The notes under the pieces: generated by a model
The model's database searches: none
What the model saw: only the letters and a program-made list of their open reading frames with translations
What the model was told of the DNA's origin: nothing
Translations under genes and position numbers: made by a program
Assembly: GCA_029564515.1 (NCBI GenBank)
Contig: JAKQPV010000048.1
Coordinates: 15,610 to 79,609, forward strand
Length of the DNA stretch: 64,000 bases
DNA from: Spirochaetota bacterium
GTDB taxonomy: Bacteria > Spirochaetota > UBA4802 > UBA5550
Reading direction: 5' to 3'
Shown here: in pieces, positions 27,245 to 39,969 of the stretch
Layout of the letters: every line of letters begins with the position of its first letter
How positions within the stretch are numbered: position 1 is the stretch's first letter

Positions 27245-27246
27245 CC

Positions 27247-27690
27247 ATGGAACATGGAACGGTAATAGAAAAAACGGGCGGCACCATTTTGGTCGAGGTT
27301 GAGGCCTGTCCTTCGTGCGAGGGGTGTGCGGCCGGATCCTCATGCGCCCTCGCGGGCAGCACGACCATGCGCAGGATCAGGATGGAGAACACGCATGACG
27401 CGCGCGTCGGCGACACGGTCAGCTTCGTTATTACGGGGAAATCCGTTGTCGCCGGCTCCCTGCTTTTTTACCTGCTGCCCGTGGCCATGCTTGTCGCCGG
27501 CGTGCTTGCCGGGGACGCGGTCCGGTCCGGGACCGGGCTCGACCGTGACGTCTCTTCGATCCTGGGAGGGGCCGCAGGTTTGATTATGTCGTTTCCGGTC
27601 ATCGCCCTTATCTCGAGAGCCATAAACAGGAGGAAGGGGTTTTCGCCGCGCCTCGTGGAAGTTACGGGCCGCGGGCGCGAATTAATTTAA
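27247..27690 (+). CDS. RseC/MucC (SoxR-reducing system) family membrane protein
   Basis: 147 aa. N-terminal 'GTVIEKTGGTILVEVEACPSCEGCAAGSSC' Cys cluster followed by two TM helices. The start lies 2 nt after the FAAL-fusion stop. Confidence 0.7.
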   Translation: MEHGTVIEKTGGTILVEVEACPSCEGCAAGSSCALAGSTTMRRIRMENTHDARVGDTVSFVITGKSVVAGSLLFYLLPVAMLVAGVLAGDAVRSGTGLDRDVSSILGGAAGLIMSFPVIALISRAINRRKGFSPRLVEVTGRGRELI

Positions 27691-27895: not shown

Positions 27896-28024
27896 ATGTC
27901 AAAAAAAGTAATTGATTTAATGACTTACCGGATTGAAAAGACCCTTAAAGACAATGGCTTCGAAGTCAAGAAAGACGACAACAGAAACGTCAAGATTCTG
28001 ATCAAATTAAACAACAATGAATAA
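27896..28024 (+). CDS. small (42-aa) hypothetical protein
   Basis: ATG 27896 is preceded by 'GGAGGAACGAC'. AT-rich relative to its neighbours. Lys/Asn-rich with no recognisable motif. The track ORF starts at 27827. Confidence 0.4.
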   Translation: MSKKVIDLMTYRIEKTLKDNGFEVKKDDNRNVKILIKLNNNE

Positions 28025-28081
28025 GCTTCCACGCGCGCTCCCCGGTCCGGCGGAGAAGCGTGGACCGAGAGGAGACGTGCA

Positions 28082-28582
28082 ATGGCTAACGATTTTGAAA
28101 TAAAGCGCCAGGCCATCAGGGATGAGCTGGAGAAGCTGAACTATGAGTTCAAGGTGGAGATCCCGAAGCGGATCGCGGAGGCGCGCACCTACGGCGACCT
28201 GAAGGAAAACGCGGAATATCATGCTGCACGGGAGCGCCAGGGCTTTGTCCAGGCCCGGATCTCGCAGCTCAACGGGCAGCTTGGCCAGCTGAACAATCTG
28301 AATATTGGCGAGATCGCCGATGAGTGCATTGGATTCGGCGCGGCCGTTACCGTAATAGACCTGGATTCCGACGACAGGATCGAGTTCGTGTTCGTGTCGC
28401 CCAACGAGGTCGATCCATCGGCCGGGAAGATTTCCCTCTCTTCACCGATAGGAAACGCGCTTCAGAACAAAAAGGCGGGGGAAACGGCAGAGGCGGTCAT
28501 CCCTGCCGGCAAGAGACGGTATTATATAGAGAAGATCGTTACCATACACGGGAACACATTTGAGAAGAAGTACAGTGGATAG
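28082..28582 (+). CDS. greA: transcription elongation factor GreA
   Basis: 166 aa. Coiled-coil N-terminus with 'YGDLKENAEYHAARERQ' and a C-terminal FKBP-like domain. Confidence 0.93.
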   Translation: MANDFEIKRQAIRDELEKLNYEFKVEIPKRIAEARTYGDLKENAEYHAARERQGFVQARISQLNGQLGQLNNLNIGEIADECIGFGAAVTVIDLDSDDRIEFVFVSPNEVDPSAGKISLSSPIGNALQNKKAGETAEAVIPAGKRRYYIEKIVTIHGNTFEKKYSG

Positions 28583-28629
28583 TTAACAGTTAAAAGTGAA
28601 TAGTGAATAGTGAATAGTGAATAGTTAAG
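28574..28629 (+). repeat. phased heptad tandem array (8 x AGTNNAN, including 4 perfect AGTGAAT)
   Basis: AGTGGAT AGTTAAC AGTTAAA AGTGAAT AGTGAAT AGTGAAT AGTGAAT AGTTAAG. It begins inside the last two greA codons. Confidence 0.9.
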
Positions 28630-28633
28630 GAAT

Positions 28634-28657
28634 AAAACCGCTCCGAAGGAGCGGTTT
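28634..28657 (+). terminator. intrinsic terminator for greA
   Basis: AAAACCGCTCC gaag GGAGCGGTTTT followed by GTATTTT. Confidence 0.75.
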
Positions 28658-28696
28658 TGTATTTTAATTGCTATAACATTCTCATGATACATACAT

Positions 28697-28726
28697 AAAA
28701 AAATCCGCTCTGAGAGCGGATTTTTT
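28697..28726. terminator. bidirectional intrinsic terminator (serves the minus-strand tRNA-Ala)
   Basis: A7-TCCGCTC tgag AGCGGA-T6. Confidence 0.75.
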
Positions 28727-28735
28727 ACAATAATT

Positions 28736-28763
28736 ATTCACTATACATTATTAACTATTCACT
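28736..28763 (-). repeat. phased heptad array, inverted relative to 28574-28629
   Basis: ATTCACT ATACATT ATTAACT ATTCACT, which is the reverse complement of AGTGAAT AGTTAAT AATGTAT AGTGAAT. It ends 10 nt from the tRNA 3' end. Confidence 0.85.
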
Positions 28764-28773
28764 GCCTTAACTG

Positions 28774-28846
<73 letters not shown>

Positions 28847-28860
28847 GGTTCGGAAATTTT

Positions 28861-28889
28861 CAGATATTTGAAGGGTCGTTTTTTGTCAA
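28861..28889 (-). promoter_or_regulatory. sigma70-like promoter for tRNA-Ala
   Basis: On the minus strand: TTGACA, 17 nt, TATCTG. The -10 box ends 14 nt upstream of the tRNA 5' end. Confidence 0.5.
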
Positions 28890-29056
28890 TATTATTTTTA
28901 AAACCAGATAAATAATGTTGCCGGTGCCGCGGGGCTTCCGGGATCTTAAAAATTACACTCCTGCGACAAACCGCGAGTATACTTTACGTGCCGATAATCC
29001 GATAATATAATGAGGTTTTCCGTGCCGGTTCCGGCCGGGTGCCGGAAAATACAATC

Positions 29057-29085
29057 TTGACAGAAATGGCGTTCCGTACTATCAT
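29057..29085 (+). promoter_or_regulatory. sigma70-like promoter at the head of the 29.1-38.3 kb cluster
   Basis: TTGACA (29057), 17 nt, TATCAT (29080). The ATG lies at 29119. Confidence 0.5.
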
Positions 29086-29118
29086 TTGCATAACGCCACC
29101 TGAAGGTATGATGGTTCG

Positions 29119-30471
29119 ATGATATTCACCTATGTAATCGTCTTCCTGTTCGTTATCATGCTTGCGATGATCGTTGTCTATACGCTCCAGACCTTCGTTC
29201 TCCCCAGACGGATCGATGAGATCGCCCAGATGATCGAAGCGGGCCAGATCAAGCAGGCAATCAAGAAGCTGACCGACATACTTGAAAAGGATGACCGGAA
29301 CAGCTATGCGCACTTTCTCCTCGCCGATGCCTATGCGCGGGACAACAACATCAAGTTCGCCATCGTGGAATACCGGCAGGTCCTGAAATACGGCAAGTAC
29401 AGCGAGAAGGTCGTTGAGGTGGATGTCCGTTCACGACTCGCAAAGCTCTACCAGGAGCAGGGCTCCTTCGACGATGCCAAGAATGAGTACCTGATCCTGA
29501 CCAAGCTGGAGCCCGACAATTTCCAGAACTTCTTTGAGCTTGGCTCCATCTATTTCAGGACGAACACGCTTGACCGCGCGCTCACATTTTTAAAGAAGAG
29601 CGCTGCCCTCAACCCGCGCCACGAGCAGTCGCATTACTACCTCGGGCAGATATACTACCAGACCAATCTCTACCCGGACGCGAAGCAGTGCTTCATCGAG
29701 TCGATCAAGATCGACCCGCTCAATTACCGGTCCCACTACTTCCTGGGCCTGGTGCTCCGCCAGATGCAGGACTACGAGTGGGCGATCAAGGAGTTCGACA
29801 TCGCGCAGAAGAGCGAGGACCTCAAGGTGAAGTGCTTCCTCGCCAAGGGGTCGTGCCACATGCAGAAGGGGATGCTCCCCAAGGCCATGATGGAGTTCGA
29901 GCGCGGCCTGAAGTTCGCCCGCAAGGGGAGCGACACCGAGCTGGGCCTCCGCTACTACCTGGCGGAGTGTCACGAGAAGACCCGGGACCTCCACTCTGCC
30001 ATCCACCAGTGGGAAAAGATCATCGAGGTGAAGCCCAATTTCCGCGACGTCCAGGCCAAGCTCAAGAACTATGCCGAGTTCCGGCAGGACGACCGGATGA
30101 AGGACTTCCTGATTTCGGGCCTGTCACAGTTCGAACACACCTGCCGCAAGATCGTGGAAGCGATGAACTTCAACATCACCGACATCAACATCATCAGCGA
30201 CACGGAGATCGAGATCATCGGGACCGAGAGCGAGGGAAAGTGGCGCAACACCCGCCAGACGAACCGGCTGATCCGCATCTTCCGCGACACGGAAACCATA
30301 CAGGATAAAACGCTCCGGAATCTCCACGAGAGCATGAAGGCTAAAAACGTGACGCGGATCATCGTCATAAGCACGGGCGACTTCTCGCAGAGCGCGATCG
30401 ATTTTGCAAACACCCGGCCCATTGAGTTGTACGGCAAGAACGAGCTGGTCGGCATGCTGAGAAAGTTCTGA
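29119..30471 (+). CDS. membrane-anchored TPR protein with a degenerate Mrr_cat-like (PD-(D/E)xK fold) C-terminal domain (paralog A)
   Basis: 450 aa. N-terminal TM helix and several TPR-like repeats. C-terminal 'FEHTCRKIVEAMNF...DTEIEIIG...LIRIFRD...IIVISTGDFSQSAIDFA...IELYGKNEL' aligns by eye to the Mrr restriction-endonuclease catalytic domain but lacks the (E/Q)xK lysine. Confidence 0.65.
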   Translation: MIFTYVIVFLFVIMLAMIVVYTLQTFVLPRRIDEIAQMIEAGQIKQAIKKLTDILEKDDRNSYAHFLLADAYARDNNIKFAIVEYRQVLKYGKYSEKVVEVDVRSRLAKLYQEQGSFDDAKNEYLILTKLEPDNFQNFFELGSIYFRTNTLDRALTFLKKSAALNPRHEQSHYYLGQIYYQTNLYPDAKQCFIESIKIDPLNYRSHYFLGLVLRQMQDYEWAIKEFDIAQKSEDLKVKCFLAKGSCHMQKGMLPKAMMEFERGLKFARKGSDTELGLRYYLAECHEKTRDLHSAIHQWEKIIEVKPNFRDVQAKLKNYAEFRQDDRMKDFLISGLSQFEHTCRKIVEAMNFNITDINIISDTEIEIIGTESEGKWRNTRQTNRLIRIFRDTETIQDKTLRNLHESMKAKNVTRIIVISTGDFSQSAIDFANTRPIELYGKNELVGMLRKF

Positions 30472-30484
30472 GCGACCCCGCACC

Positions 30485-32314
30485 ATGGACGTCATCGGCA
30501 CCATCCTTCCGCGCATCCCGCTTTTCAGGCACTGCCTGGAGGATGAGCTGCGCCGGCTCCGCGCGATCGGGAAACTGGCCGAAGTGAAGAAGGGCCACCG
30601 GTTCGACCTGAAGAAGATCAATTCCCTCAATGTCGTCGTCAACGGGATCTTCGAGATAGAGTCGACCGGCAACACGGACGTCGTGTACCTGGCGCCGGGC
30701 TCGTTTTTCGGCACGATCCCCTTCACCGAGAACCGCCAGGCGGGAAGGATCCGCGCCCTGGTGGACTCCTCGATCCTGATGTTCGCCGCGGAGGACATGT
30801 TCCGATTTTTGCTCATGTCATACCGGTGCCTCCGGGGCTACCTGAAGATCATCGACAGGATGGGCTTTGACGTTTCCGACGTGGGGAAAGAGTATTTTGG
30901 CGGTACTACCAGGATCATAACCGCGTACAGCAGCCTGCCCGGAGCGGGCAAATCGCTCCTTGCTTCCCTGATGGGCGTCTCGCTGAAGGGCGCGGGAAAA
31001 ACGGTCATCCTCGACCTGTCATACGCGGGGAACAGCGTGTTCAATTTTTTCGAGAAGAAAATCACCGCCCCCCTGTCGCACCGGGCGGAAGACGGCCCTT
31101 CCTTCGAGGAGATCATCCGCGGGCGGATCGAGCCGGTGGATGAGGGCCTTGACCTTGTCAACGTCGCGTTCGGCTCTAAGGTAAAGGTCAATCCCGATAT
31201 CCTGTCGCCGCTCCTGTTCATGCTGTCGAAGGAATACCGTTTCATCGTGATCGACTGCGGCGACGATGACCCGGGCCTCAGGGACCGCGTCATTGGCCTG
31301 TCCGACCGTGTCTTCACGCTCGTGAAGAACAGGAAGGACATACGCTCACTGCACGAGGTGTTCGACAGATCGGCCCGTGAGGGCCAGCGCGTCTATTACG
31401 TACTGAATGAATACCACGCCGGCGACATCAGGGATTTTCCCGGCGGACTGACGCTCCCGAAATTCGACCCGCCGTCATCCGGCGAGTACGAGCGTCTGCG
31501 GCGCTGTGCCGGCGGGGACGCTCTCGCGCCTCTGGTCTCGCTCGTGACGAAGAAGAACCGGGCACTGGTTCTTGAAACGGGCCTGCTCAACGCGCTCTAT
31601 TTCAGCGGCCTGTTCGGAGCGATGCAGGGCTCCGGAACGACCTTTGACCTCCTGTACGCATCTTCCTACGCCTATATCGTCGCCGCGCTCTCCCTGGTGA
31701 GCGGAAGCGGCGGCGAGTTCAGGAAGCGGATGGACCACTTTTTCTCCGAGGACCGGATGAGCAGGCTGCTGGACGTCACCTTCCCGACGGACCACGTGTT
31801 CAAGAACGACAGCGTTGTGAAGCTTGCGGGCGAAATGTGCGGCAGTGCGCGGATCGAGACCTTCCGCGAGCTTCCGGTGGCCATGCTGGGCCAGGGCGGA
31901 ACGTCCGGCCGGCGCATATTCAGCACCGGTTATCTCCGCGATATGCTTGCCGCCGCGTTCTGCCTCTACCCCGTGTTCGAGGAGGTCCCGATACTGGAAG
32001 AGCGCTACAACGCGGGCTATCCGGGTTTCAGCGTGCGCGTGGAGGACCTGTTCCGCATTGATGTCGACGAGACAATTTATATTTCGGTCCGGAACGCAAT
32101 GAAGCCCGCCTACCGCGACGGCAAGCTGATGAGCTTCTACACCCGCTACCTCGATTTTATCGGGGAGCAGGCCACGGACAGCGCGCCGGGCGATTGTGCG
32201 GACGAAACAATTGTGCTTGAAGTCTCTGAAAAAGACGTGCGTCCCGGATGGATCATTGAACACTCGCGGGAAATCTCGGACAAACTCGTGAAAAAAATCT
32301 CCCGGAAGTCATAA
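30485..32314 (+). CDS. cNMP-binding domain / ParA-MinD-superfamily P-loop / degenerate patatin-like domain fusion protein
   Basis: 609 aa. N-terminal CAP-type cNMP-binding pattern ('GSFFGTIPFTENRQAGRIRALVDSSILMF'). Central P-loop 'ITAYSSLPGAGKSLLAS...TVILDL...FIVIDCGDD'. The C-terminus aligns by eye to patatin blocks with altered catalytic positions. Confidence 0.65.
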   Translation: MDVIGTILPRIPLFRHCLEDELRRLRAIGKLAEVKKGHRFDLKKINSLNVVVNGIFEIESTGNTDVVYLAPGSFFGTIPFTENRQAGRIRALVDSSILMFAAEDMFRFLLMSYRCLRGYLKIIDRMGFDVSDVGKEYFGGTTRIITAYSSLPGAGKSLLASLMGVSLKGAGKTVILDLSYAGNSVFNFFEKKITAPLSHRAEDGPSFEEIIRGRIEPVDEGLDLVNVAFGSKVKVNPDILSPLLFMLSKEYRFIVIDCGDDDPGLRDRVIGLSDRVFTLVKNRKDIRSLHEVFDRSAREGQRVYYVLNEYHAGDIRDFPGGLTLPKFDPPSSGEYERLRRCAGGDALAPLVSLVTKKNRALVLETGLLNALYFSGLFGAMQGSGTTFDLLYASSYAYIVAALSLVSGSGGEFRKRMDHFFSEDRMSRLLDVTFPTDHVFKNDSVVKLAGEMCGSARIETFRELPVAMLGQGGTSGRRIFSTGYLRDMLAAAFCLYPVFEEVPILEERYNAGYPGFSVRVEDLFRIDVDETIYISVRNAMKPAYRDGKLMSFYTRYLDFIGEQATDSAPGDCADETIVLEVSEKDVRPGWIIEHSREISDKLVKKISRKS

Positions 32315-32463
32315 TTTTACCGCACGCGCCAAATTCTTATTGATTAATTAACGGATTTGATAAGTTGTATCCAGACCGGTCGGCGGTGCCGCATATGGAC
32401 CTGCGCCATGGTTGATCGGCTGCAGGGTATTGTAAAAACCTTCAATGACCAGGGGTTGGGCGA

Positions 32464-33048
32464 ATGAGATCAAGAAAGACGAACCTGTTGCAGGGCGTGG
32501 TGCTCCTGACCGGCGTGCTCTTTATCGTCATGGGGCTTTTTTTCTATATCTCTCCGTTCCGCGTATTCAAGATGCTGTCACCGGGCGCCGAGGCCCGCAG
32601 TGCGGCCGTGGTCCAGAACCCGGGTGAGACGGTATCGGGGACGCTTGATGAAGGCGAGGAGCTCACCCAGGACAACTGGCTCAAGCAGATCATCAACGAC
32701 GACATCATCTCGCCGCTCTATTACGTGTTTCGCGCCCTGGCGGTTTTGCTGATCGTAAGCGGTGTGGCCATGATCATGCCCCTGTTCGACCCGCTTCGTT
32801 ACCGGGGGCTTGTGTATTATAACGGGCTGATTTTTCCCTTCTTTTTTTCGATTTCGATGTTCATTTTCATGCGCATACAGAAATCGATAAATACCGGGAT
32901 TGCGGCGGATACCGGCAAGGAGGCCATCGCATCAATGGAAGCGCATCCTGCCATGGTCGTGCTGGCCTCCGTTTTTCTCGTGATAGCGGTCCTGAACGCG
33001 GCAAGCCTGATCATCACGAGGGACCAGGCCAGGGCAGGAAGGGAATAA
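32464..33048 (+). CDS. 4-TM membrane protein, unknown function
   Basis: 194 aa. Four hydrophobic helices and an acidic loop. No known motif. Confidence 0.6.
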   Translation: MRSRKTNLLQGVVLLTGVLFIVMGLFFYISPFRVFKMLSPGAEARSAAVVQNPGETVSGTLDEGEELTQDNWLKQIINDDIISPLYYVFRALAVLLIVSGVAMIMPLFDPLRYRGLVYYNGLIFPFFFSISMFIFMRIQKSINTGIAADTGKEAIASMEAHPAMVVLASVFLVIAVLNAASLIITRDQARAGRE

Positions 33049-33193
33049 TCACCAGCTGCTGCGCCCGATAAATATTGCAGCTCATTTAAATTTTTTAATT
33101 GATTAATATTTCACGAATATATAAAGTTGTTGAAAAGCTTTACAGCGGCTGATTCCTGAGATTTAATTGATAACGGAGTGACTGGAGAAACCT

Positions 33194-33532
33194 ATGAATC
33201 TGAATATTAAAAGGGTCAATAACGTCGTAGTTGTTTACCTTTCCGGACGGCTGGACGTGCATCTTTCCGCCGAGATAGAAAAAGAAATCAACAAGATCAT
33301 TCAGAATGAGCCCAACACGCATCTCCTCATGAACCTGAACGACGTGGAGTACATGAGCAGCTCGGGTCTGAGGATTTTCGTTTCCACCATGAGGATCCTG
33401 AAAGAGCAGAAGAGGCTCCTGAAGCTCTGCAACATGAACAACGCCGTCAAGAAGATCTTTGAAGTCGTTGAGTTGATGGATATGTTCGATATATACGAGT
33501 CCGAGGATGAAGCGCTGAAATCTTTCAAGTGA
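33194..33532 (+). CDS. STAS-domain protein (anti-sigma-factor antagonist / SpoIIAA-like)
   Basis: 112 aa. 'LSGRLDVHLSAEIEKEI...', with the conserved phospho-Ser context 'VEYMSSSGLRIF'. Confidence 0.8.
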   Translation: MNLNIKRVNNVVVVYLSGRLDVHLSAEIEKEINKIIQNEPNTHLLMNLNDVEYMSSSGLRIFVSTMRILKEQKRLLKLCNMNNAVKKIFEVVELMDMFDIYESEDEALKSFK

Positions 33533-33539
33533 TCATCGC

Positions 33540-35747
33540 GTGATCCAGTGGTCGCCATTGAGCATATTTCGCAATATAAAAAAAGCTGAAAAGAATTCTG
33601 TTGATTTCGCCGGCGCCTGCAAAGTAACAATAGATAAAGAAAAGTACCGCTTCTCCGAAGGCCTGTACCGCGCCGGTATCAATAACTATTCCCTCTTCCA
33701 GAAATTCTCCGGATTCAGGTGGCCTGCCTGGATAAACGCCGTGACGGACACGCGGCGCGGCGCTGCATCGTTCGTGCCCCTCGTGCTTGTAAACGCCGCC
33801 GCGCGTGACAACCTCTATTTCACGAACCTGCTCTCGGATGAAGGACTCTCCGTAGACCCGGCCGGCATGCTGTCGCCGTCGTATGCGCACTGGTCGATCG
33901 AAGTGTGGTTCGTCGCCGGTAACACGGTGCACCGCCCCGCGGACGACTGGGGCAGGGTCCGGATCGACCGGGACGTGAAAAATTCCGTTATAACCACGGT
34001 GTGGGACAGCCCCCTGTTAAAGCTCCAGCAGACCGTATTCGGCGCACGGAGCGAGGTTGACGAGGCCGTCGTGGAGGTTGAGTGCGTCCTCAAGGAGCGG
34101 AAAAACTCATCCCTGTTGGTGGCGGTGCGGCCCTATAACCAGTTGCACCTGGGTGGCCTCGATTCCGTCGAGTTCCACGCGGACTCGCTCGCCCTGACCG
34201 TAAACGGGAAGAAAACGGTCTGCATGGGCGCGCGGCCCGACTACGTGATCTCGGGCGGCGGCGACCGCTGCCGTGATATCGACCCGCGCGATGACGGCAA
34301 GCAGTTCAAGAGCGCGTCGAAGCACGGCATGGCCGCCCTCGGCCTCGGCTATTCGCTGAAGAAGGGCGAGAACAGGGTGCGGTTCCGTATCGCGCTCGAT
34401 CCGCGCGGCGGCATGGCCGGGGGCAAGTTTGATTACAATGCGGTCCGGGAGGACTATACGTCCTTTTCGGGCATGAGGATAAAGAACGGCGCCAACGCCG
34501 CGTTTCCCGACAAGCTGCTGCAGAACTGGTTCTACGGATCAAAGGTTTCCCTCCTCAACTTTTCGCTGAAGAAACTCCGCCGCGAGGACGGGACACTCGA
34601 TTACCGTGCGGCGTGGCAGATCGTGCTCGGGGCCGTCCGCATGGGGTACTTCCCCGAGTCGCTCAGCTATATTGATCATCTTATCAAGCATTTCGCCTGC
34701 GACGAGAAGCGCATCGGTTTCGACGATGCGATCAATATCTGCTTCGTGATTGAGTCCGCGGCGGACCATTTCATCCACGTCCGGGACAACGCGTTTCTCC
34801 AGGGCCGCTTCGACTTCATTCGGGCCAAGGCGCGCCTCCTGTACGATTACGCGCGGAAGCTAAAAAAGCCGGGCCTCCTCAACCGCAATTCGCTGCCCGA
34901 CTACTACATTGCCGAAGACCACCCGCACGACCTGATACTCATCGCGCACGCGCTCGGCCAGTACTCCTACCTGGCACGCTGCCTGGGCATATTCGGCGAC
35001 GAGCTGAAATTCAAGAAGGAGTCGGACCGCATCGCCGCCGGCGTTGTCAGGGCGGTGTTCGATCCTGACAGCGAGCGGCCAGAAAACGATTTCATCGTCG
35101 GCAGCGTGTCGGCCGGGTTCCCCTTCCGGCACGAGTCGTATACTGCCGTGCTGCTCGGCGGGCTGCTCGGCCGCGTGCGGGCGCGTTTCGGCGACATGCC
35201 GCTCTTCGTGAAATCGATCGGATGGGACCTGTTCTCGACCCTTGTCGCCGCGAACGCCATGATCATGCTGAAAGACCAGGCGGGCTACGACGTGGTCGAG
35301 GGCCTCCTGAAAATGAGGAGCAGGACCTTCTCCCTGCCGGAATATGTCAACCCTTCGACAGGGAGGGCCAACTGGGGGGACGGCTCTTCGATCGCGGTCA
35401 GCGCGATGGTCTTCGCGACCCTGCGCAACCTTCTCTTCGTGGACAACCCTGAGCGGCTCGAACTCTTCCCCCTGCCGCGGGAAAGCTGGTTCGCCCCGGG
35501 AAACGAGATCAGGATCGAGGACGCGCCGTCGCGGTTCGGGCTCATCTCCCTGCGCATGTCCTCCACCGTCAACGAGATACAGCTCCATTTCGAGAAGCTC
35601 CCGAAATTCGTGCCGCCGGACATCATGATAAACCTTCCCTATAAGACAAAAATCAAGCAGGAAGACGATTTTATCCTCAAACGCGAGGAGGATACCTCGT
35701 TTATCATTAATGGGTGGCCCTCCATCGTCCGATTCTTAAGGGTATAG
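33540..35747 (+). CDS. large hypothetical protein, possibly an (alpha/alpha)6-barrel glycoside-hydrolase-like fold
   Basis: 735 aa. GTG start 7 nt after the STAS stop. The C-terminal half has a helical-repeat pattern plus 'LPEYVNPSTGRANWGDGSSIA' and a terminal beta-rich segment, reminiscent of GH15/GH63/debranching-type barrels. The fold call is tentative. Confidence 0.35.
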   Translation: MIQWSPLSIFRNIKKAEKNSVDFAGACKVTIDKEKYRFSEGLYRAGINNYSLFQKFSGFRWPAWINAVTDTRRGAASFVPLVLVNAAARDNLYFTNLLSDEGLSVDPAGMLSPSYAHWSIEVWFVAGNTVHRPADDWGRVRIDRDVKNSVITTVWDSPLLKLQQTVFGARSEVDEAVVEVECVLKERKNSSLLVAVRPYNQLHLGGLDSVEFHADSLALTVNGKKTVCMGARPDYVISGGGDRCRDIDPRDDGKQFKSASKHGMAALGLGYSLKKGENRVRFRIALDPRGGMAGGKFDYNAVREDYTSFSGMRIKNGANAAFPDKLLQNWFYGSKVSLLNFSLKKLRREDGTLDYRAAWQIVLGAVRMGYFPESLSYIDHLIKHFACDEKRIGFDDAINICFVIESAADHFIHVRDNAFLQGRFDFIRAKARLLYDYARKLKKPGLLNRNSLPDYYIAEDHPHDLILIAHALGQYSYLARCLGIFGDELKFKKESDRIAAGVVRAVFDPDSERPENDFIVGSVSAGFPFRHESYTAVLLGGLLGRVRARFGDMPLFVKSIGWDLFSTLVAANAMIMLKDQAGYDVVEGLLKMRSRTFSLPEYVNPSTGRANWGDGSSIAVSAMVFATLRNLLFVDNPERLELFPLPRESWFAPGNEIRIEDAPSRFGLISLRMSSTVNEIQLHFEKLPKFVPPDIMINLPYKTKIKQEDDFILKREEDTSFIINGWPSIVRFLRV

Positions 35748-35793
35748 GGACCGGGGCCCGGGCGGCCCCGGCACCGAAACACAGGGTGATGAC

Positions 35794-37365
35794 ATGCTGG
35801 TACCGTCCCTTATAATTCTGGTCATACTGCTGGGCCTCGTGCTTGTGTACGTCTATGTTCTTGCCCCCCGCCTGAACCCGCTCAACCGCGCGGACAGCTT
35901 CTTGAAGCAGGACATGGTCGATGAGGCGATACTCGAGTACAAAAAGGTCCTGGACAACAACCCGAACGATTTCGCCGTCCACTGGAAGCTGGCCAACGTC
36001 CTGTTCGACCGGGACGAGGTCGACGAGGCCGTCCTGCACCTGGAGGATATCCTCAGGATCGACAAGTTCAACTACGAGGTCGAGAAGGTGAAGGTCCAGC
36101 GGAAGCTCGCCGAGGTCTATCTCCGCCGCGACGAGACATTGAAGGCTTTCCAGAACTATTTCGACATACTGAGGGCGTACCCGGGCGATGCCGAGTCGCT
36201 CTACCACGCGGCGTTCATCCTGCTCGGGAACGAGTACTTCGAGCAGGCGCTCCGCTACTTCGACCGGCTCATCAAGATGGGCGAGAAGGACATGGAGGTG
36301 CTGTTCGGCGCCGGCATCGCGAGCTACCAGGCCATGAAGCTCAACGAGCCGGTGGAGTACTTCCGGGACGCCCTGGCGCTCGAGACGCGGTCGGACATCA
36401 CGAACCTCGCGATGGCGTTCGCGCTCCAGCGGAAGCGCGACTTCAAGGCCGCCCTGAATTACGCGCGTCTTATCATCGACGGGACGGAGGACGCGACGGC
36501 CCGGTTCGTGGCGACCAGGCTCTACGGCATACTCTGCGTCCAGGCGAAGAAGCCGGCCGAGGGCGTGAAGATGCTGGAAACGGTCCTGGAATACGCGCGT
36601 AAAAACGACATGCCCGACGAGACGTCGATGATTCTCTACGACCTGGGCTTTGCCTGCCTCCACGCCGAGATGACCGACCAGGCGTACGACTACTGGAACC
36701 AGCTCTACCAGGCCGACAGGAATTTCCGGAACATCCAGTTCCTGGTGACGCAGCTCCGCAAGGAGATGGACACCGCGGCCAAAACAGGCAACCGCACCGA
36801 CGGGACGGTGACCGAGCACGAGCAGGAATGGCTCGACGGCGCATTCGCGCCCGATTTTCTATGGAGCATCTGCGGCCTCAAGAGCGCGAAGGCCGTTGAC
36901 CTGGACCCGATCCTTGCCTCGGCACGGGCGGACGCGGTCCGTGACGATGACCGGGGGATGAAGACGGGGAGGTCGTCCATCGCGGACGACAAGATCAACG
37001 CCTTCCTTGATCTGGACATGGAGAACTTCCGGATCATCGCCGGCCGCGTGGTCGGCAAGCTCGGCCTGCGCGTGGACGAGATTCTGCCCTCGTACCGTGA
37101 GGCGGACGGCGTCGACTTCCTGGCCGTCGATCCGGCGACCAGGGACAAAACGCTGGTCTGGGTCAGGAGGTGGAGGGACCTTCGCGTCAGCGAAATCCCG
37201 CTCCGGAACTTTGCCCAGGCGGTGAACGACGCCAAGGCGAAGCAGGGCCTGTTCATCACGACGAGCGAACTCTCCTCCGTCGGCGAAGACGCGGTAAAAC
37301 GGCTCTCAAAGGTGCGGGTGGTGGCTCCCGAGGAGCTCGGGAACACACTCGCGGGCCTGATATAG
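35794..37365 (+). CDS. membrane-anchored TPR protein with a degenerate Mrr_cat-like C-terminal domain (paralog B)
   Basis: 523 aa. Same architecture as 29119..30471. C-terminal 'ADGVDFLAVD...TLVWVRRW...KQGLFITTSELSSVGEDAV...VRVVAPEEL'. Confidence 0.65.
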   Translation: MLVPSLIILVILLGLVLVYVYVLAPRLNPLNRADSFLKQDMVDEAILEYKKVLDNNPNDFAVHWKLANVLFDRDEVDEAVLHLEDILRIDKFNYEVEKVKVQRKLAEVYLRRDETLKAFQNYFDILRAYPGDAESLYHAAFILLGNEYFEQALRYFDRLIKMGEKDMEVLFGAGIASYQAMKLNEPVEYFRDALALETRSDITNLAMAFALQRKRDFKAALNYARLIIDGTEDATARFVATRLYGILCVQAKKPAEGVKMLETVLEYARKNDMPDETSMILYDLGFACLHAEMTDQAYDYWNQLYQADRNFRNIQFLVTQLRKEMDTAAKTGNRTDGTVTEHEQEWLDGAFAPDFLWSICGLKSAKAVDLDPILASARADAVRDDDRGMKTGRSSIADDKINAFLDLDMENFRIIAGRVVGKLGLRVDEILPSYREADGVDFLAVDPATRDKTLVWVRRWRDLRVSEIPLRNFAQAVNDAKAKQGLFITTSELSSVGEDAVKRLSKVRVVAPEELGNTLAGLI

Positions 37366-37378
37366 CGGCGGGCGGCAG

Positions 37379-38326
37379 ATGACCTCTCCGGCCGACACGG
37401 GCGGCATGAAGCGCGTCCCCCTCACCTCCATCGACGGGGACGACCGCTACTTTAAAATCAGCAGGAACATCATTCGCGACGAGCTGAGAAGCTCGATACG
37501 GGAGTTCGGCGTCCTTGACCCGCCGGTGGTGACGCCGCGCGGCCGGTCGTACCGCGCGGTCTTCGGGTTCAACAGGCTCGATGTACTCCGCGAGCTGGGC
37601 GCGGAGGCCGCCGACTGCCTGGTCGCGCCCGATTTCGGCGCCGGGTTTTTCGCCCGGGGCGCGCTGCTGAAATGCCAGCGGAATGAAGCGGGCCCGATCG
37701 GCAGGCTCAGGGCCCTCGCGATACTGCGCGACCTCGGCGTCGACGATGCGCACCTGGAGCTGATCGCGTCAAAGGGCCTGCACGTGTCCGCGGACTTCGT
37801 CCGCGACGGCGCACTCCTCGCCGCGGCTCTGGATATGCCTGCCGTGCTGCGGGACTACTGCGACGTACGCGACATCCACCTGCGCATTGTCAGGGACCTG
37901 GCGCGGATGCATCCTTCCGACAGGGCGCTGCTCTCGTCGTGGGTGGAGTTTGCGCCCCTGAGGGTGAACATATTCAGGTTCATCGTCGAGATGCTGGCGG
38001 ACATCCGTGATCGCGACGGCGGTCTTGATGCCGTGGCGGGAATAAGCCCGGGTGAGGACCGGGACCGGAAAACATGGGAGGAGGAGTTGTACGGTCGCGT
38101 CCGCGCGGCCCGCTATCCGGAGTTTTCCTCTCTCAGCCAGGAGGCTGACGGCATAGTAAGTTATTTTGCTTCACGGGGGCTTGAACTGACCTATCCGCCC
38201 TATTTCGAGGGGGACAGGGTGGAGCTGACGCTGCGGCTGGGAAGGCGCGATGACCCGGAATCGGTCGGCGGTCTTCTGTCGGGTGTCGACTGGTCGCGGC
38301 TCCGGCCTTTGCTTGACCTGCTTTGA
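37379..38326 (+). CDS. ParB/Srx-fold N-terminal domain protein (ParB-like)
   Basis: 315 aa. 'VPLTSIDGDDRYFKISR...LRSSIREFGVLDPPVV...YRAVFGFNRLDVLRELG' fits the ParBc pattern including the GxxR box. No obvious HTH seen by eye. Confidence 0.55.
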   Translation: MTSPADTGGMKRVPLTSIDGDDRYFKISRNIIRDELRSSIREFGVLDPPVVTPRGRSYRAVFGFNRLDVLRELGAEAADCLVAPDFGAGFFARGALLKCQRNEAGPIGRLRALAILRDLGVDDAHLELIASKGLHVSADFVRDGALLAAALDMPAVLRDYCDVRDIHLRIVRDLARMHPSDRALLSSWVEFAPLRVNIFRFIVEMLADIRDRDGGLDAVAGISPGEDRDRKTWEEELYGRVRAARYPEFSSLSQEADGIVSYFASRGLELTYPPYFEGDRVELTLRLGRRDDPESVGGLLSGVDWSRLRPLLDLL

Positions 38327-39778
38327 TCACTTCTCGATTTTTTTCTGTATGTCCTCAAACTTGTTTTTCAGCATGGCGCCCAGGGTGTTGGAAGCGGAGG
38401 CGCCTTCCTTCTTCACGAAGGTCTCGTAGTCCTTCCGCTCTTCCATCTGGACCGCCTCCTTCTCGCTGAGGACGAGCTTGCGGCTGCTCTGCTCGATCCT
38501 GAGCACGGCGGCCTTTATGGAGTCGCCCTCGGCGTATTTCTTCAGCATGTCCGCATCCATTTTGTTCCTGAGCTCTCCCCGGGGAATAAAGCCGAGCATG
38601 CCGTTCTCGAGGCGAACGCTCAGTCCCACCGGCTTCACTTCTTCCACGATGACGGTCTGCACGGAGTTCTCGATGCCGGAGCCTTTCTCCTGCCAGGGAT
38701 CGGGGCCGCCGGACACCAGCTCCAGGGATATCTTCCTGTCCACGGCATTGATGCTGTTGATACGGACCTGCACCTCGTCCCCCAGGGAAACTGCGTCCTC
38801 GGGCCGGGTGATCTTTTTCAGGTGGCTCATCCGGGATACGTGGATAAACCCGTCCAGCCCGGGCTCGAGCTCCACGAACGCGCCGGTCTTGATGATGTTG
38901 GCCACGCGCCCGGGCACGGTAGCGCCGGCCTCGTACGTGCCGATGTTGTCCCACGGGTCCGCCTCGATGTCCTTGATGGAAAGGGTCAGGCGCCGGGTGT
39001 CCCAGTCGATAGCCTTCACGGAGGCCTCGATCCGCTCGCCGATCTTGAAGGAGGAGGTGCCGACGTTCCGTCCCCGCGACAGCTCGGACTTCGGGACCAG
39101 GGCGTCCATGCCGCCGATGTCCACGAACACGCCGAAGTCGCGCACGTTTGATACCGTGCCTGCGATCCGGTCGCCGACCCTGAGGGTCTCCTTCAGGCTC
39201 GCCTCGGTCCGCTTGCGCTGCTCGTCGAGGAGGGCGGTGCGCGACAGGATGATGTTCTTGCCGCGCTCCTTGAATTCAATGATCTTGAAAAGGAAGGCCC
39301 GGCCTATCATTGCCGCCGGGTTCGATGGCGCACGCGTGTCTATCTGGGAAACGGGGCAGAAGCACTTGATGCCGCCCACCGAGATCGAGTACCCGCCCTT
39401 GACCGCGTCGATCACGGTCCCGTACACGGGGATCGCCTCGCGGTGGGCCATCTGCACCAGGTTGATGCTCGCGCCGCCCCGTCCGATGCTGGTGGTAAGG
39501 CGAATCTCGCCGCTCGTGCGGGAGACGACATAGGCCTGTATGATGTCCCCGTTTTTTACCGAGAGCGTCTCGTCGTCGTTCCTGAATTCCTCGGCGCCGA
39601 TGACGGCTTCGCTCTTCCCTGAAATGTCGACAAAAACGAGTTCTTTTGTTATGAATACGATTTTTCCTTCGACCCGGGTTCCGATCTCGAAATCGTCCCT
39701 CCGGTTCAAGGAGCTTTCAAGCATTTCCTGAAAGTTTTCGCCGTTCGTGTCTTCGGTGTGTTCGAATGGTGTGCTCAT
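38327..39778 (-). CDS. rpsA: 30S ribosomal protein S1 (multi-S1-domain)
   Basis: Repeated S1 OB-fold modules ('G.V..V...G.FVD.GG..G..' several times). ATG 39778 is preferred. The track ORF extends to a TTG at 39808. Confidence 0.8.
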   Translation of the reverse strand: MSTPFEHTEDTNGENFQEMLESSLNRRDDFEIGTRVEGKIVFITKELVFVDISGKSEAVIGAEEFRNDDETLSVKNGDIIQAYVVSRTSGEIRLTTSIGRGGASINLVQMAHREAIPVYGTVIDAVKGGYSISVGGIKCFCPVSQIDTRAPSNPAAMIGRAFLFKIIEFKERGKNIILSRTALLDEQRKRTEASLKETLRVGDRIAGTVSNVRDFGVFVDIGGMDALVPKSELSRGRNVGTSSFKIGERIEASVKAIDWDTRRLTLSIKDIEADPWDNIGTYEAGATVPGRVANIIKTGAFVELEPGLDGFIHVSRMSHLKKITRPEDAVSLGDEVQVRINSINAVDRKISLELVSGGPDPWQEKGSGIENSVQTVIVEEVKPVGLSVRLENGMLGFIPRGELRNKMDADMLKKYAEGDSIKAAVLRIEQSSRKLVLSEKEAVQMEERKDYETFVKKEGASASNTLGAMLKNKFEDIQKKIEK

Positions 39779-39969
39779 TGTGGTCCCGCCGTATAATATA
39801 TCTGTCAATCGTTCCGGGGAGAGGGCTCCGGCAGGTTGCCGGGCTCTTCCGGGTCAATAAATTTGTGTCAGCGTATAATCAGTGCCCGGATGCTGTAAAC
39901 AAAATATTTATGGTTTGGGGCAATTTTATGTCAGATGATTATATATCACATTACGCCTCGATCCGGGAT

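Follow-up and report, generated by a model that had tools for sequence, protein, structure and literature searches.

The described systems that come closest to the locus analyzed here are the partition-related ParABS, Noc and PadC proteins, the tetratricopeptide repeat (TPR) adaptor LapB (YciM), which serves lipopolysaccharide assembly at the inner membrane, STAS-based partner switching (SpoIIAA/RsbV), the NTE/RssA-like fusions of cyclic nucleotide (cNMP)-binding and patatin domains, the glycoside hydrolase (GH) families GH94, GH65 and GH15, and the Mrr-type nucleases. In Myxococcus xanthus, PadC acts together with ParA and bactofilins as a ParB-like, non-centromeric adaptor by which ParA is tethered to a scaffold (PMC5703909). 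Proteins with a divergent ParB fold can bind nucleoside triphosphates (NTPs) other than CTP, namely ATP or GTP, and sequence does not predict which; the same survey of the ParB fold makes no mention of Spirochaetes, TPR, STAS or patatin (PMC12704722). The locus compared with these systems is a cluster of seven genes (g1 to g7, 5' to 3') at 29119-38326 on the plus strand of a 64,000-nt stretch of DNA from a Spirochaetota bacterium (contig JAKQPV010000048.1, positions 15,610 to 79,609; hereafter the window, in whose positions all coordinates are given). As in ParABS, Noc and PadC, a P-loop domain of the ParA/MinD fold (in g2) and a protein of the ParB/Noc fold (g7) are encoded in one cluster. 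The cluster is not a classical ParABS system, however, nor is it a classical cNMP switch or a defence system. Every assigned domain lies within a known superfamily and, as judged from these assignments, the composition as a whole is new. Scans of Pfam, NCBIfam and PADLOC returned no system-level or equivalog assignment, in line with an earlier note on this DNA that knew of no named system of this make-up, and nothing relevant on this domain combination was found in the literature. The defining sequence feature was tested for ParA, ParB, CAP, patatin and Mrr and in each case was not retained, so the cluster should not be filed under any of these systems. The reading preferred here, tentatively and at something short of an even chance, is that of a lineage-specific, vertically inherited core operon of one uncultured Spirochaetota clade whose products would form a cytoplasm-facing platform at the inner membrane. 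That the genes make up one core module outside defence is held with higher confidence than this specific platform model.

Conservation was scanned with one genome per GTDB species, the seven window proteins being compared by tblastn with the loci found. This yielded 53 loci, all from uncultured Spirochaetota metagenome-assembled genomes (MAGs), many of which are labelled Leptospirales by NCBI. The order and strand of g1 to g7 were kept in about 38 sufficiently long loci of these 53 species-level genomes, and identities to the window proteins fall to 22-35% for g2, g5 and g7. The neighbourhood survey thus agrees with the earlier suggestion of one conserved, co-inherited seven-gene unit. Median identities to the window were 79% for g4, 63% for g1 (55-94% across the 53 genomes), 51% for g6, 44% for g2, 39% for g3, 38% for g5 and 34% for g7, with values of 48% and 66% for rpsA and greA, the two genes between which the cluster has a fixed chromosomal locus in most genomes. 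The identity of each cluster gene tracked that of rpsA (Spearman 0.77-0.85), and no relatives were detected in IMG/VR viral contigs or PLSDB plasmids. Divergence in step with rpsA, fixed order and the lack of viral or plasmid relatives point to a vertically inherited core cluster and not to a mobile defence island. Furthermore, the conservation of g1 and g4 exceeds that of rpsA, the gene of ribosomal protein S1, which suggests an important cellular role in these environmental spirochaetes, a group without known cell biology. The homolog clusters of g5 (43), g2 (116) and g7 (47) came, where a source was named, almost only from uncultured Spirochaetota MAGs. In locus L009, CheB/CheR and histidine kinase genes lie upstream and the rpsA side is rearranged with the cluster intact; in L023-L027 and L033, 2-3 kb are inserted after greA next to an equally intact cluster, and some genomes carry no rpsA downstream.

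These data also bear on the possibility that there is no functional module and that unrelated genes are adjacent merely through the relatedness of the sampled genomes. All 53 genomes belong to one clade, the greA and rpsA flanks are syntenic in most of them too, three junctions have median gaps of 67-115 nt together with promoter-like elements, and g5 or g4-g7 were lost in sub-lineages. However, the gene order outlasts protein divergence to 22-35% identity while the flanks rearrange, the other three junctions are tight or overlapping, a duplicated paralog stands at both ends with a partition-protein relative after each copy, the same 12-mer box precedes g3 and g4, and the families of g2, g3, g5 and g7 hardly occur outside the clade. 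Mere adjacency is accordingly considered quite doubtful.

The seven open reading frames (ORFs) and the intergenic gaps of 13, 149, 145, 7, 46 and 13 nt reported previously were reproduced when recomputed from the ORF coordinates, and the same seven genes were called independently on metagenome assemblies carrying an identical g5 protein. Across 37-51 genomes the median gaps are 13 nt for g1-g2, 15 nt for g4-g5 and 9 nt for g6-g7, with frequent 4-nt overlaps, compared with looser medians of 67 nt for g2-g3, 115 nt for g3-g4 and 80 nt for g5-g6. The cluster is therefore built from three tightly coupled pairs, g1-g2, g4-g5 and g6-g7. Through these tight junctions each of two paralogous TPR/nuclease-fold genes directly precedes a relative of a partition protein (g1 the ParA-like g2, g6 the ParB-like g7), and the GH-fold gene g5 comes directly after the STAS gene g4.

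The g2 gene (30485-32314, plus strand) encodes 609 aa. The earlier reading of this protein as a cNMP-binding, P-loop and patatin-like fusion was upheld by searches of a 33-member family profile against the PDB, which delimited a CAP-like beta-barrel (residues ~1-135), a ParA/MinD-like P-loop domain (~138-313) and a patatin-like domain (~359-570), all with degenerate signature motifs. Residues 138-313 matched the Borrelia PF-32 ParA-family protein 3k9g (E 2.2e-8) and, more weakly, Mrp, Soj and MinD; weak matches of the P-loop extended to the bacterial tyrosine (BY) kinases of polysaccharide export (Wzc, Etk, CapA and VpsO, E 0.007 to 0.9). The profile matched cNMP-binding domains in the PDB at E 7e-4 to 0.02 and, at fold level, the patatin PlpD (5fqu) at E 1.2e-4. 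The window protein alone lies below the Pfam cutoffs for cNMP_binding (PF00027, 24.7 bits vs 27.5) and Patatin, and the precomputed Pfam annotation of its orthologs contains PF00027 in most, Patatin in many and PF13614 in one. Some orthologs are named 'cyclic nucleotide-binding and patatin-like phospholipase domain-containing protein' by NCBI. With a CAP-type barrel at the N-terminus and a patatin-type domain at the C-terminus of one polypeptide, g2 resembles the NTE/RssA-like fusions. It differs from them in the inserted ParA-like domain and in that the Glu and Arg of the phosphate-binding cassette, the oxyanion loop, the GxSxG glycines and the catalytic Asp are not conserved.

The motif statistics of g2 are based on 144 distinct family members. 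The phosphate-binding cassette of cNMP-binding domains (G-E-x-A-L ... R-[ST]-A) is not conserved: its Glu is present in 7 of the 144 sequences, with Thr in the window protein, and position 86, presumably equivalent to the cassette Arg by its spacing from the invariant Gly, as in CRP and PKA, is Lys or Arg in 80 (56%) and Ala in the window. The earlier proposal that the module is gated by a second messenger consequently loses its footing, the Glu being rare in the family and the Arg equivalent also missing from window g2. The deviant Walker A motif xKGGxxGK[ST] with its signature lysine is likewise not conserved in these sequences; the aligned position is Lys in 20 of 144, the GG pair is not conserved, and the motif is reduced to G-K-[ST], in which G155 and [ST]157 are invariant (GAGKS in the window). 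Lys156 is present in 122 members and replaced by Thr, Asn, Arg, Val or Gly in the remaining 22 (15%), and ATP use by this P-loop has apparently been given up repeatedly in the family. Members closely related to window g2 are among those without the lysine (SGRS, SGVS, SGNT, AGTT). The Walker A'/B aspartates D177 and D257 are found in 144/144. In the patatin-like domain the Gly-rich oxyanion loop GGGxR/KG is absent, with [EQ][TS]xxxx in its place; the nucleophile elbow Y-[ST]-S-[SA]-[YF]-[SG] keeps the Ser and has lost the GxSxG glycines; and the catalytic Asp (DG[AG]) is Ser510 in 129 members. Unlike ParA of ParABS, the ParA-like domain of g2 is thus embedded between CAP-like and patatin-like domains, is without the KGG lysine, and has lost the Walker A lysine in 15% of its members.

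The g7 gene (37379-38326, plus strand, 315 aa) encodes an N-terminal ParB domain, a helical domain resembling a helix-turn-helix (HTH) and a C-terminal alpha/beta extension. Window g7 alone gives just E 0.033 to Pfam ParB_N, and the call of a ParB-like protein is carried by the family profile and by structure. The profile matched Noc (7nfu, residues 4-183) at E 4.9e-8 and ParB (4umk) at E 5.7e-8; the AlphaFold2 model, with a predicted local distance difference test (pLDDT) score of 90.5, was matched by Foldseek to ParB, KorB, Noc and PadC (E 2e-6 to 8e-4, about 200 aligned columns). The succession of a ParB N-terminal domain and a helical HTH domain that marks the ParB/Noc fold is accordingly present. 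The family has the invariant residues G63, N65, R66, R101, E103, G105 and P106. Boxes II (GERRxR) and III (ENLQR) of ParB were not found in it; GERR is G63-[FHLY]-N65-R66 (GFNR in the window), and of ENLQR the E-N pair is aligned to L-K and the Arg (R101) alone is retained. The isoelectric point (pI) is 5.4 for the whole protein and 5.75 for the HTH-like domain. No match to the parS consensus with up to 3 mismatches was found in the 64-kb window, a divergent site elsewhere in the genome being possible, and an inverted-repeat scan detected none inside the cluster. In contrast to ParABS, g7 therefore has GFNR for GERR, its HTH-like domain is acidic and its C-terminal domain unrelated, the genes g2 and g7 are non-adjacent and each follows a membrane TPR paralog, and no parS-like site lies in the window. 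It is not claimed that g7 binds no nucleotide, since NTP binding by divergent ParB-fold proteins cannot be predicted from sequence (PMC12704722).

Both proteins are central to the earlier idea of a cNMP-gated ParA/ParB machine for positioning or nucleoid anchoring, in which g2 would sense cyclic AMP or cyclic GMP and undergo ATP-driven dynamics, g7 would bind DNA and the TPR/nuclease-fold proteins would act as tethers. The match of g2 to the ParA-family protein 3k9g and of its N-terminus to cNMP-binding domains is in its favor, as is the best sequence match of g7, which is Noc, a membrane-tethering ParB paralog, and which includes the helical DNA-binding-domain region. The nuclease-fold domains of g1 and g6 could also still bind DNA, g6 retains both Asp of GDGGID, and g1 is basic. 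However, this explanation is weakened by the near loss of the cassette Glu (7/144) and the variable Arg position (Lys or Arg in 56%, Ala in the window), the missing KGG signature, the change of GERR to G[FHLY]NR with loss of the ENLQR E-N pair, the acidic pI of g7 (5.4; HTH-like domain 5.75) and of g6 (5.1), and the lack of a parS-like palindrome in 64 kb or of an inverted repeat in the cluster. Such a machine is judged unlikely.

The g1 gene (29119-30471, plus strand, 450 aa) encodes a protein anchored in the membrane at its N-terminus, with a presumably cytoplasmic TPR solenoid and, at the C-terminus, a domain of the Mrr_cat fold without the catalytic Lys; g6 (35794-37365, plus strand, 523 aa) has the same plan with an acidic linker after the TPR region and WxR for QxK. 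For g1, Pfam and hydropathy confirmed the transmembrane, TPR and Mrr_cat-like parts: both proteins match TPR families, the Mrr_cat scores are E 7.7e-13 (49 bits) for g1 and E 1.4e-10 (41.7 bits) for g6 vs a cutoff of 21 bits, and each has one N-terminal hydrophobic segment at residues 1-30. Pairwise identity is just 18%. Alignment of the two ortholog families with hhalign gave a probability of 99.5 (E 4.7e-23, 416 columns from residue 1), by which g1 and g6 are true full-length paralogs, as had been proposed. The window pI values are 8.7 for g1 and 5.1 for g6. This opposite net charge is kept across orthologs (pI 7.1-9.2 for g1, 5.0-6.7 for g6) and is compatible with a heteromeric pair.

The nuclease-fold domains were compared with EcoKMrr, taken from the E. 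coli K-12 record, whose catalytic residues include Q217-x-K219 of the D...(Q/E)xK motif. The g6 domain aligns with EcoKMrr residues 160-281 at E 3.9e-14 and retains D438 and D441, both Asp of GDGGID; Q217 and K219 are replaced by W456 and R458, and both Asp and both replacements are invariant (21 genomes). In a weak, partial alignment of g1 (E 1.3e-5), Q217 and K219 correspond to R386 and F388 (F/I388 in the family). The catalytic (Q/E)xK of Mrr_cat PD-(D/E)xK nucleases is therefore found neither in g6 (WxR) nor in g1 (RxF/I), and with Mrr_cat above cutoff in both, the replacement of the QxK positions supports the earlier 'dead nuclease' call, for g1 by way of the weak alignment. Single-sequence PDB searches with the two nuclease-fold domains returned nothing useful. 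Like Mrr-type nucleases, g1 and g6 have a C-terminal domain above the Mrr_cat cutoff; they differ in QxK being WxR (g6, invariant) or RxF/I (g1) and in the fusion to a membrane anchor and TPR array, and their weak matches to the related Pfam family NA-iREase1 fall under its cutoff.

The presence of nuclease and patatin folds calls attention to defence, which the earlier note had rated as the less likely option. As an anti-phage or conflict system, the nuclease-, patatin- and ParB-fold proteins with TPR sensors would bring about abortive infection or restriction. Defence islands often contain Mrr_cat, patatin, ParB/Srx and TPR domains, weak PADLOC matches were obtained for g1 (PDC-S02, E 3.7e-6) and g6 (mREase_IV, E 1.6e-5), confined to the Mrr-like domain, and the sub-cutoff NA-iREase1 matches point the same way. 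However, the PADLOC-DB 2.0 scan of the cluster proteins gave no significant match and no complete system, with g2-g5 lacking any match. The cluster occupies the greA-rpsA locus in most genomes, diverges along with rpsA and contains in g1 and g4 proteins above rpsA in conservation, no relatives were found on plasmids or viral contigs, and the (Q/E)xK of the nuclease fold and the oxyanion loop and Asp of the patatin fold are missing. The low rating stands with this fixed locus, vertical inheritance, dead catalytic motifs and want of a PADLOC system, and a role in defence is regarded as highly improbable.

The g3 gene (32464-33048, plus strand, 194 aa) encodes a membrane protein for which the earlier four-transmembrane call was borne out by hydropathy segments at residues 5-36, 80-112, 116-139 and 155-187. 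The loop PLFDPLRYRG between the second and third segment is conserved in 49 sequences, the gene sits between g2 and g4 in 47 loci, and no family match was found in Pfam, NCBIfam or PADLOC. The g4 gene (33194-33532, plus strand, 112 aa) encodes a single-domain STAS protein of the anti-sigma-factor-antagonist superfamily, in accordance with the previous STAS assignment (Pfam STAS, E 3.3e-21; TIGR00377, 85.5 bits vs a cutoff of 53.45). In 47 genomes the g4 loop DVEYMSSSGLRIFVSTMR is fully conserved and the Ser-rich loop MSSSG, of phospho-acceptor type, is invariant; the latter presumably occupies the position of the phosphorylated DSSG motif of SpoIIAA. In its score above the TIGR00377 cutoff and in MSSSG, g4 is like the SpoIIAA/RsbV proteins of STAS partner switching. 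In contrast to these systems, the cluster contains no RsbW/SpoIIAB-type kinase, PP2C phosphatase or sigma factor, and a GH-fold gene is coupled downstream. No HATPase_c or PP2C domain was found in the cluster or its immediate flanks, and a cognate kinase or phosphatase may be encoded elsewhere.

The g5 gene (33540-35747, plus strand, 735 aa, GTG start) encodes a cytoplasmic protein that had been left as an unknown. Its AlphaFold2 model (pLDDT 88; predicted template modelling score, pTM, 0.90) has an N-terminal beta-sandwich, an (alpha/alpha)6 barrel and a second, C-terminal beta-sandwich, of glycoside hydrolase/phosphorylase type. Foldseek against the PDB matched GH94 cellobiose phosphorylase (E 1.8e-15, TM-score 0.53-0.57) and furthermore GH15, GH65, GH95 and GH78 (E 1.8e-15 to 1e-10 overall). 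No match was found in the Pfam, NCBIfam or PADLOC hidden Markov models (HMMs), and the g5 sequence profile searched against the PDB returned noise alone (sorcin, POFUT2). The three-domain arrangement of sandwich, six-hairpin barrel and sandwich is thus shared with GH94, GH65 and GH15 at E down to 1.8e-15, unlike the sequence, with about 10% identity, TM-scores of just 0.5-0.57 and no GH family HMM match. An exhaustive HMM search of the representative library gave 878 relatives of g5, including a sister family of 770-850 aa with members from Spirochaetales and Bacillota MAGs and sub-threshold matches to GH95, GH15 and GDE_C only. The polar residues N85, R89, D106, R197, D246, D464 and R629 are common to g5 and this sister family, and D464, at the N-terminus of a barrel helix, is conserved across the wider family together with several polar residues of the N-terminal domain. 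With its GH-type fold and these shared polar residues, g5 is the one component of the cluster that could still be active as an enzyme or bind a ligand.

Two distant relatives of g5, P0044 and P0046, were considered as members of the same system and rejected; their neighbours are gpsA, PIG-L and CofC genes, in one case with a nucleotidyl cyclase. In L063 (8001-11620) and L064 (3917-7536), 815-aa distant relatives of g5 (about 25-30% identity over a quarter of the length) lie directly 3' of gpsA, and at their ends they overlap a gene for a class III nucleotidyl cyclase (Guanylate_cyc). This setting is unrelated to the cluster, yet it curiously connects a GH-like family with cyclic-nucleotide signalling.

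The proteins g1 and g6 resemble LapB in the layout of N-terminal anchor, cytoplasmic TPR and small C-terminal domain and in their proposed mode of action as membrane-tethered adaptors for cytosolic clients. Unlike LapB, they have an Mrr-type nuclease fold where LapB has a rubredoxin, they score 17-40 bits with the NCBIfam LapB models vs cutoffs of 363-474, they occur as two paralogs, and no lpxC or ftsH context surrounds them. The strongest rival to the platform model, with which it overlaps, builds on this resemblance. In a LapB-like envelope or glycan module, the membrane TPR adaptors would present or regulate an active g5 and possibly a lipid-acting g2, the STAS protein would regulate, and the ParA and ParB folds would be incidental scaffolds. 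Consistent with such a module are the confident GH94/GH15/GH65-type fold of g5 with polar residues conserved beyond the clade, the layout of g1 and g6 with their weak LapB/TPR matches, the weak matches of the g2 P-loop to polysaccharide-export BY-kinases and the tight g4-g5 coupling. However, L061 and L062 do without g5 while keeping the rest of the cluster, genes for glycosyltransferases, transporters or sugar nucleotides were found neither in nor beside the cluster, g2 is missing the patatin catalytic motifs, the similarity to LapB is at TPR level only and far under the family cutoffs, and the distant relatives of g5 occur in unrelated contexts. This alternative is considered less likely than not.

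Transcription of the cluster was earlier attributed to a single promoter. The predicted site, a sigma-70-type element TTGACA-17-TATCAT at 29057-29085 (plus strand), is present with 11/12 matches and lies 33 nt 5' of the g1 ATG, and TTGACA-17-TAnnnT is found 31-33 nt from the g1 ATG in eight relatives (L008, L010, L012, L015, L017, L018, L036 and L050). The single-promoter claim is incomplete, however, as conserved promoter-like elements also occur inside the cluster. In the g2-g3 gap, the 12-mer box TTATTGATTAAT is exact at 32337-32348 (plus strand) and is a candidate operator or g3 promoter element; allowing one mismatch, it was found in this gap in 13/47 genomes, on the plus strand in every case. 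About 21 nt after the box comes a conserved ATATCC, and a -10 hexamer cannot be clearly made out. The same 12-mer recurs in the g3-g4 gap of the window at 33096-33107, within a putative internal promoter at 33096-33127 (plus strand) that is composed of a T-tract, the box TAATTGATTAAT with a -35 hexamer TTGATT (33099-33104), a 17-nt spacer and a -10 hexamer TAAAGT (33122-33127). In 28 genomes the g3-g4 gap has an UP-/T-tract followed by TTGATT-17-TAnAAT, with the consensus TTTTTaATTGATTAATA...TaTtTA.AaT, typically 60-65 nt from the g4 ATG. With at most one mismatch, the box occurs 53 times in 977 kb of related loci; 32 of these sites fall within the g2-g3 and g3-g4 gaps, all on the plus strand. 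Given these elements in both gaps, a single promoter probably does not account for all transcription of the cluster; a minimum of one further conserved promoter, internal and located before g4, is probable, and g3 and g4 possibly share an operator. With permissive thresholds, Rfam detected neither riboswitches nor leaders within the cluster and its gaps, the sole above-threshold match being a tRNA between greA and g1.

In the platform model preferred here, g1 (basic) and g6 (acidic) would be single-span TPR anchors with the N-terminus outside and the C-terminus inside, residing with the four-transmembrane g3 in the inner membrane. Each anchor would recruit the protein encoded downstream of it, g1 recruiting g2 and g6 recruiting g7. 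The P-loop would probably still allow g2 to switch by nucleotide-dependent dimerisation, partnered by g7, based on the GK[ST] kept in 85% of members and the invariant Asp177 and Asp257; the two would resemble ParA-ParB or ParA-PadC and act on a membrane platform instead of parS DNA. The STAS protein g4 would give a partner-switching input to g5 or receive an output from it. The nuclease-fold, patatin-fold and CAP-fold modules would most likely be non-catalytic modules for interaction or ligand binding. Since g5 alone still has the look of a functional enzyme or of a protein that binds a ligand, a cytoplasmic glycan or sugar-phosphate, possibly envelope-related, would likely be processed or sensed locally as the output of the platform. 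Like all functional statements on the cluster, the model is inferred from domain content and gene order.

Several observations weigh against this platform model. All cluster-bearing members are uncultured, and part of the conservation could be simple descent, as the genomes form one clade in which greA and rpsA are usually syntenic too. L061 and L062 are without g5 and keep the rest of the cluster, and L047, L048 and L054 keep g1-g2 only, with unrelated genes downstream; the seven genes are thus not an obligate unit, and g1-g2, kept in the latter loci too, is the most persistent core. Switching by ATP cannot be universal for g2, because 15% of its family have another residue in place of the Walker A Lys. 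The membrane topology follows from the positive-inside rule, a rule of thumb, the pairing of g1 with g2 and of g6 with g7 is drawn solely from gene adjacency, and g5 may be a pseudo-enzyme as well.

A further-reaching version of the platform model can be envisaged, though it should be treated as speculative and rather improbable. It would have the cluster be a cell-organising machine of unrecognised type, in which an inner-membrane platform of two paralogous TPR/nuclease-fold anchors, controlled by STAS, would work with a non-centromeric ParB-fold partner and a degenerate ParA-like switch, the latter housed in a CAP/patatin pseudo-enzyme, to position or regulate a cytoplasmic glycan-processing enzyme or other cargo, as a core and possibly essential invention of one lineage. 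If the seven proteins are one machine, they would represent a new use of partition-protein folds, uncoupled from DNA and paired with membrane TPR anchors, a STAS protein and a glycosidase fold. This would add to the evidence for the ParB fold as a general NTP switch outside chromosome segregation (PMC12704722), and would show how a system can be assembled mostly of enzyme folds whose canonical catalytic motifs are gone. The seven families furthermore offer a clean genomic marker for the clade and define testable protein pairs.

At its 3' end the cluster stops where it had been placed, with the g7 stop (38326) abutting the stop of the convergent rpsA (38327-39808), which encodes five S1 domains. 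On the 5' side, greA is followed by a strong terminator with a 13-bp-stem hairpin at 28632-28660 (28625-28667 with the T-run) and by a second hairpin at 28698-28726 that is a perfect 14-bp palindrome between A- and T-runs and potentially bidirectional. The minus strand carries a tRNA-Ala(GGC) gene at 28773-28846. With the terminator, the second hairpin and the opposite-strand tRNA gene in between, the cluster is set apart from greA as a transcription unit of its own. Further 5' of greA, at 24290-27690, are genes for a 984-aa AMP-binding/PP-binding (adenylation and carrier) protein and an RseC/MucC-family protein. Both were called from the Pfam annotation of L001, an identical contig, and neither gene is kept beside the cluster in L009.

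Other genomes differ in details around the cluster. In L061 (2296-4218) and L062 (6792-8723) the STAS gene is followed by g6 after about 30 nt, and their g2 is 26% identical to that of the window. In L047 (8629-16673), and also in L048 and L054, a small transmembrane protein, a weak methyltransferase-like ORF and a 518-aa ORF are encoded 3' of g1-g2; the 518-aa ORF of L047 was considered as a divergent g6 and rejected (hhalign probability 0.1), its neighbours being unrelated too. A DUF1015 gene lies 5' of g1 in some genomes (L047 6906-8126; L062 1582-2841, there between greA and g1), so the upstream junction is not fixed. An ORF of 113-115 aa without a Pfam match is found directly 3' of rpsA and on the same strand in L007 (14894-15241, minus strand), L008 (15038-15379, minus strand) and L009 (18147-18488, plus strand), and in L007 and L008 falls between g7 and rpsA; the abutting stop codons of g7 and rpsA leave no room for it in the window. 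The G+C content is 0.52 in window positions 28001-30000 and 32001-34000, which cover g1 and g3-g4, vs 0.60-0.64 elsewhere in the cluster, and there also falls short of most of the window. Both g1 and g4, which rank highest in conservation among the seven proteins, are encoded in AT-richer stretches.

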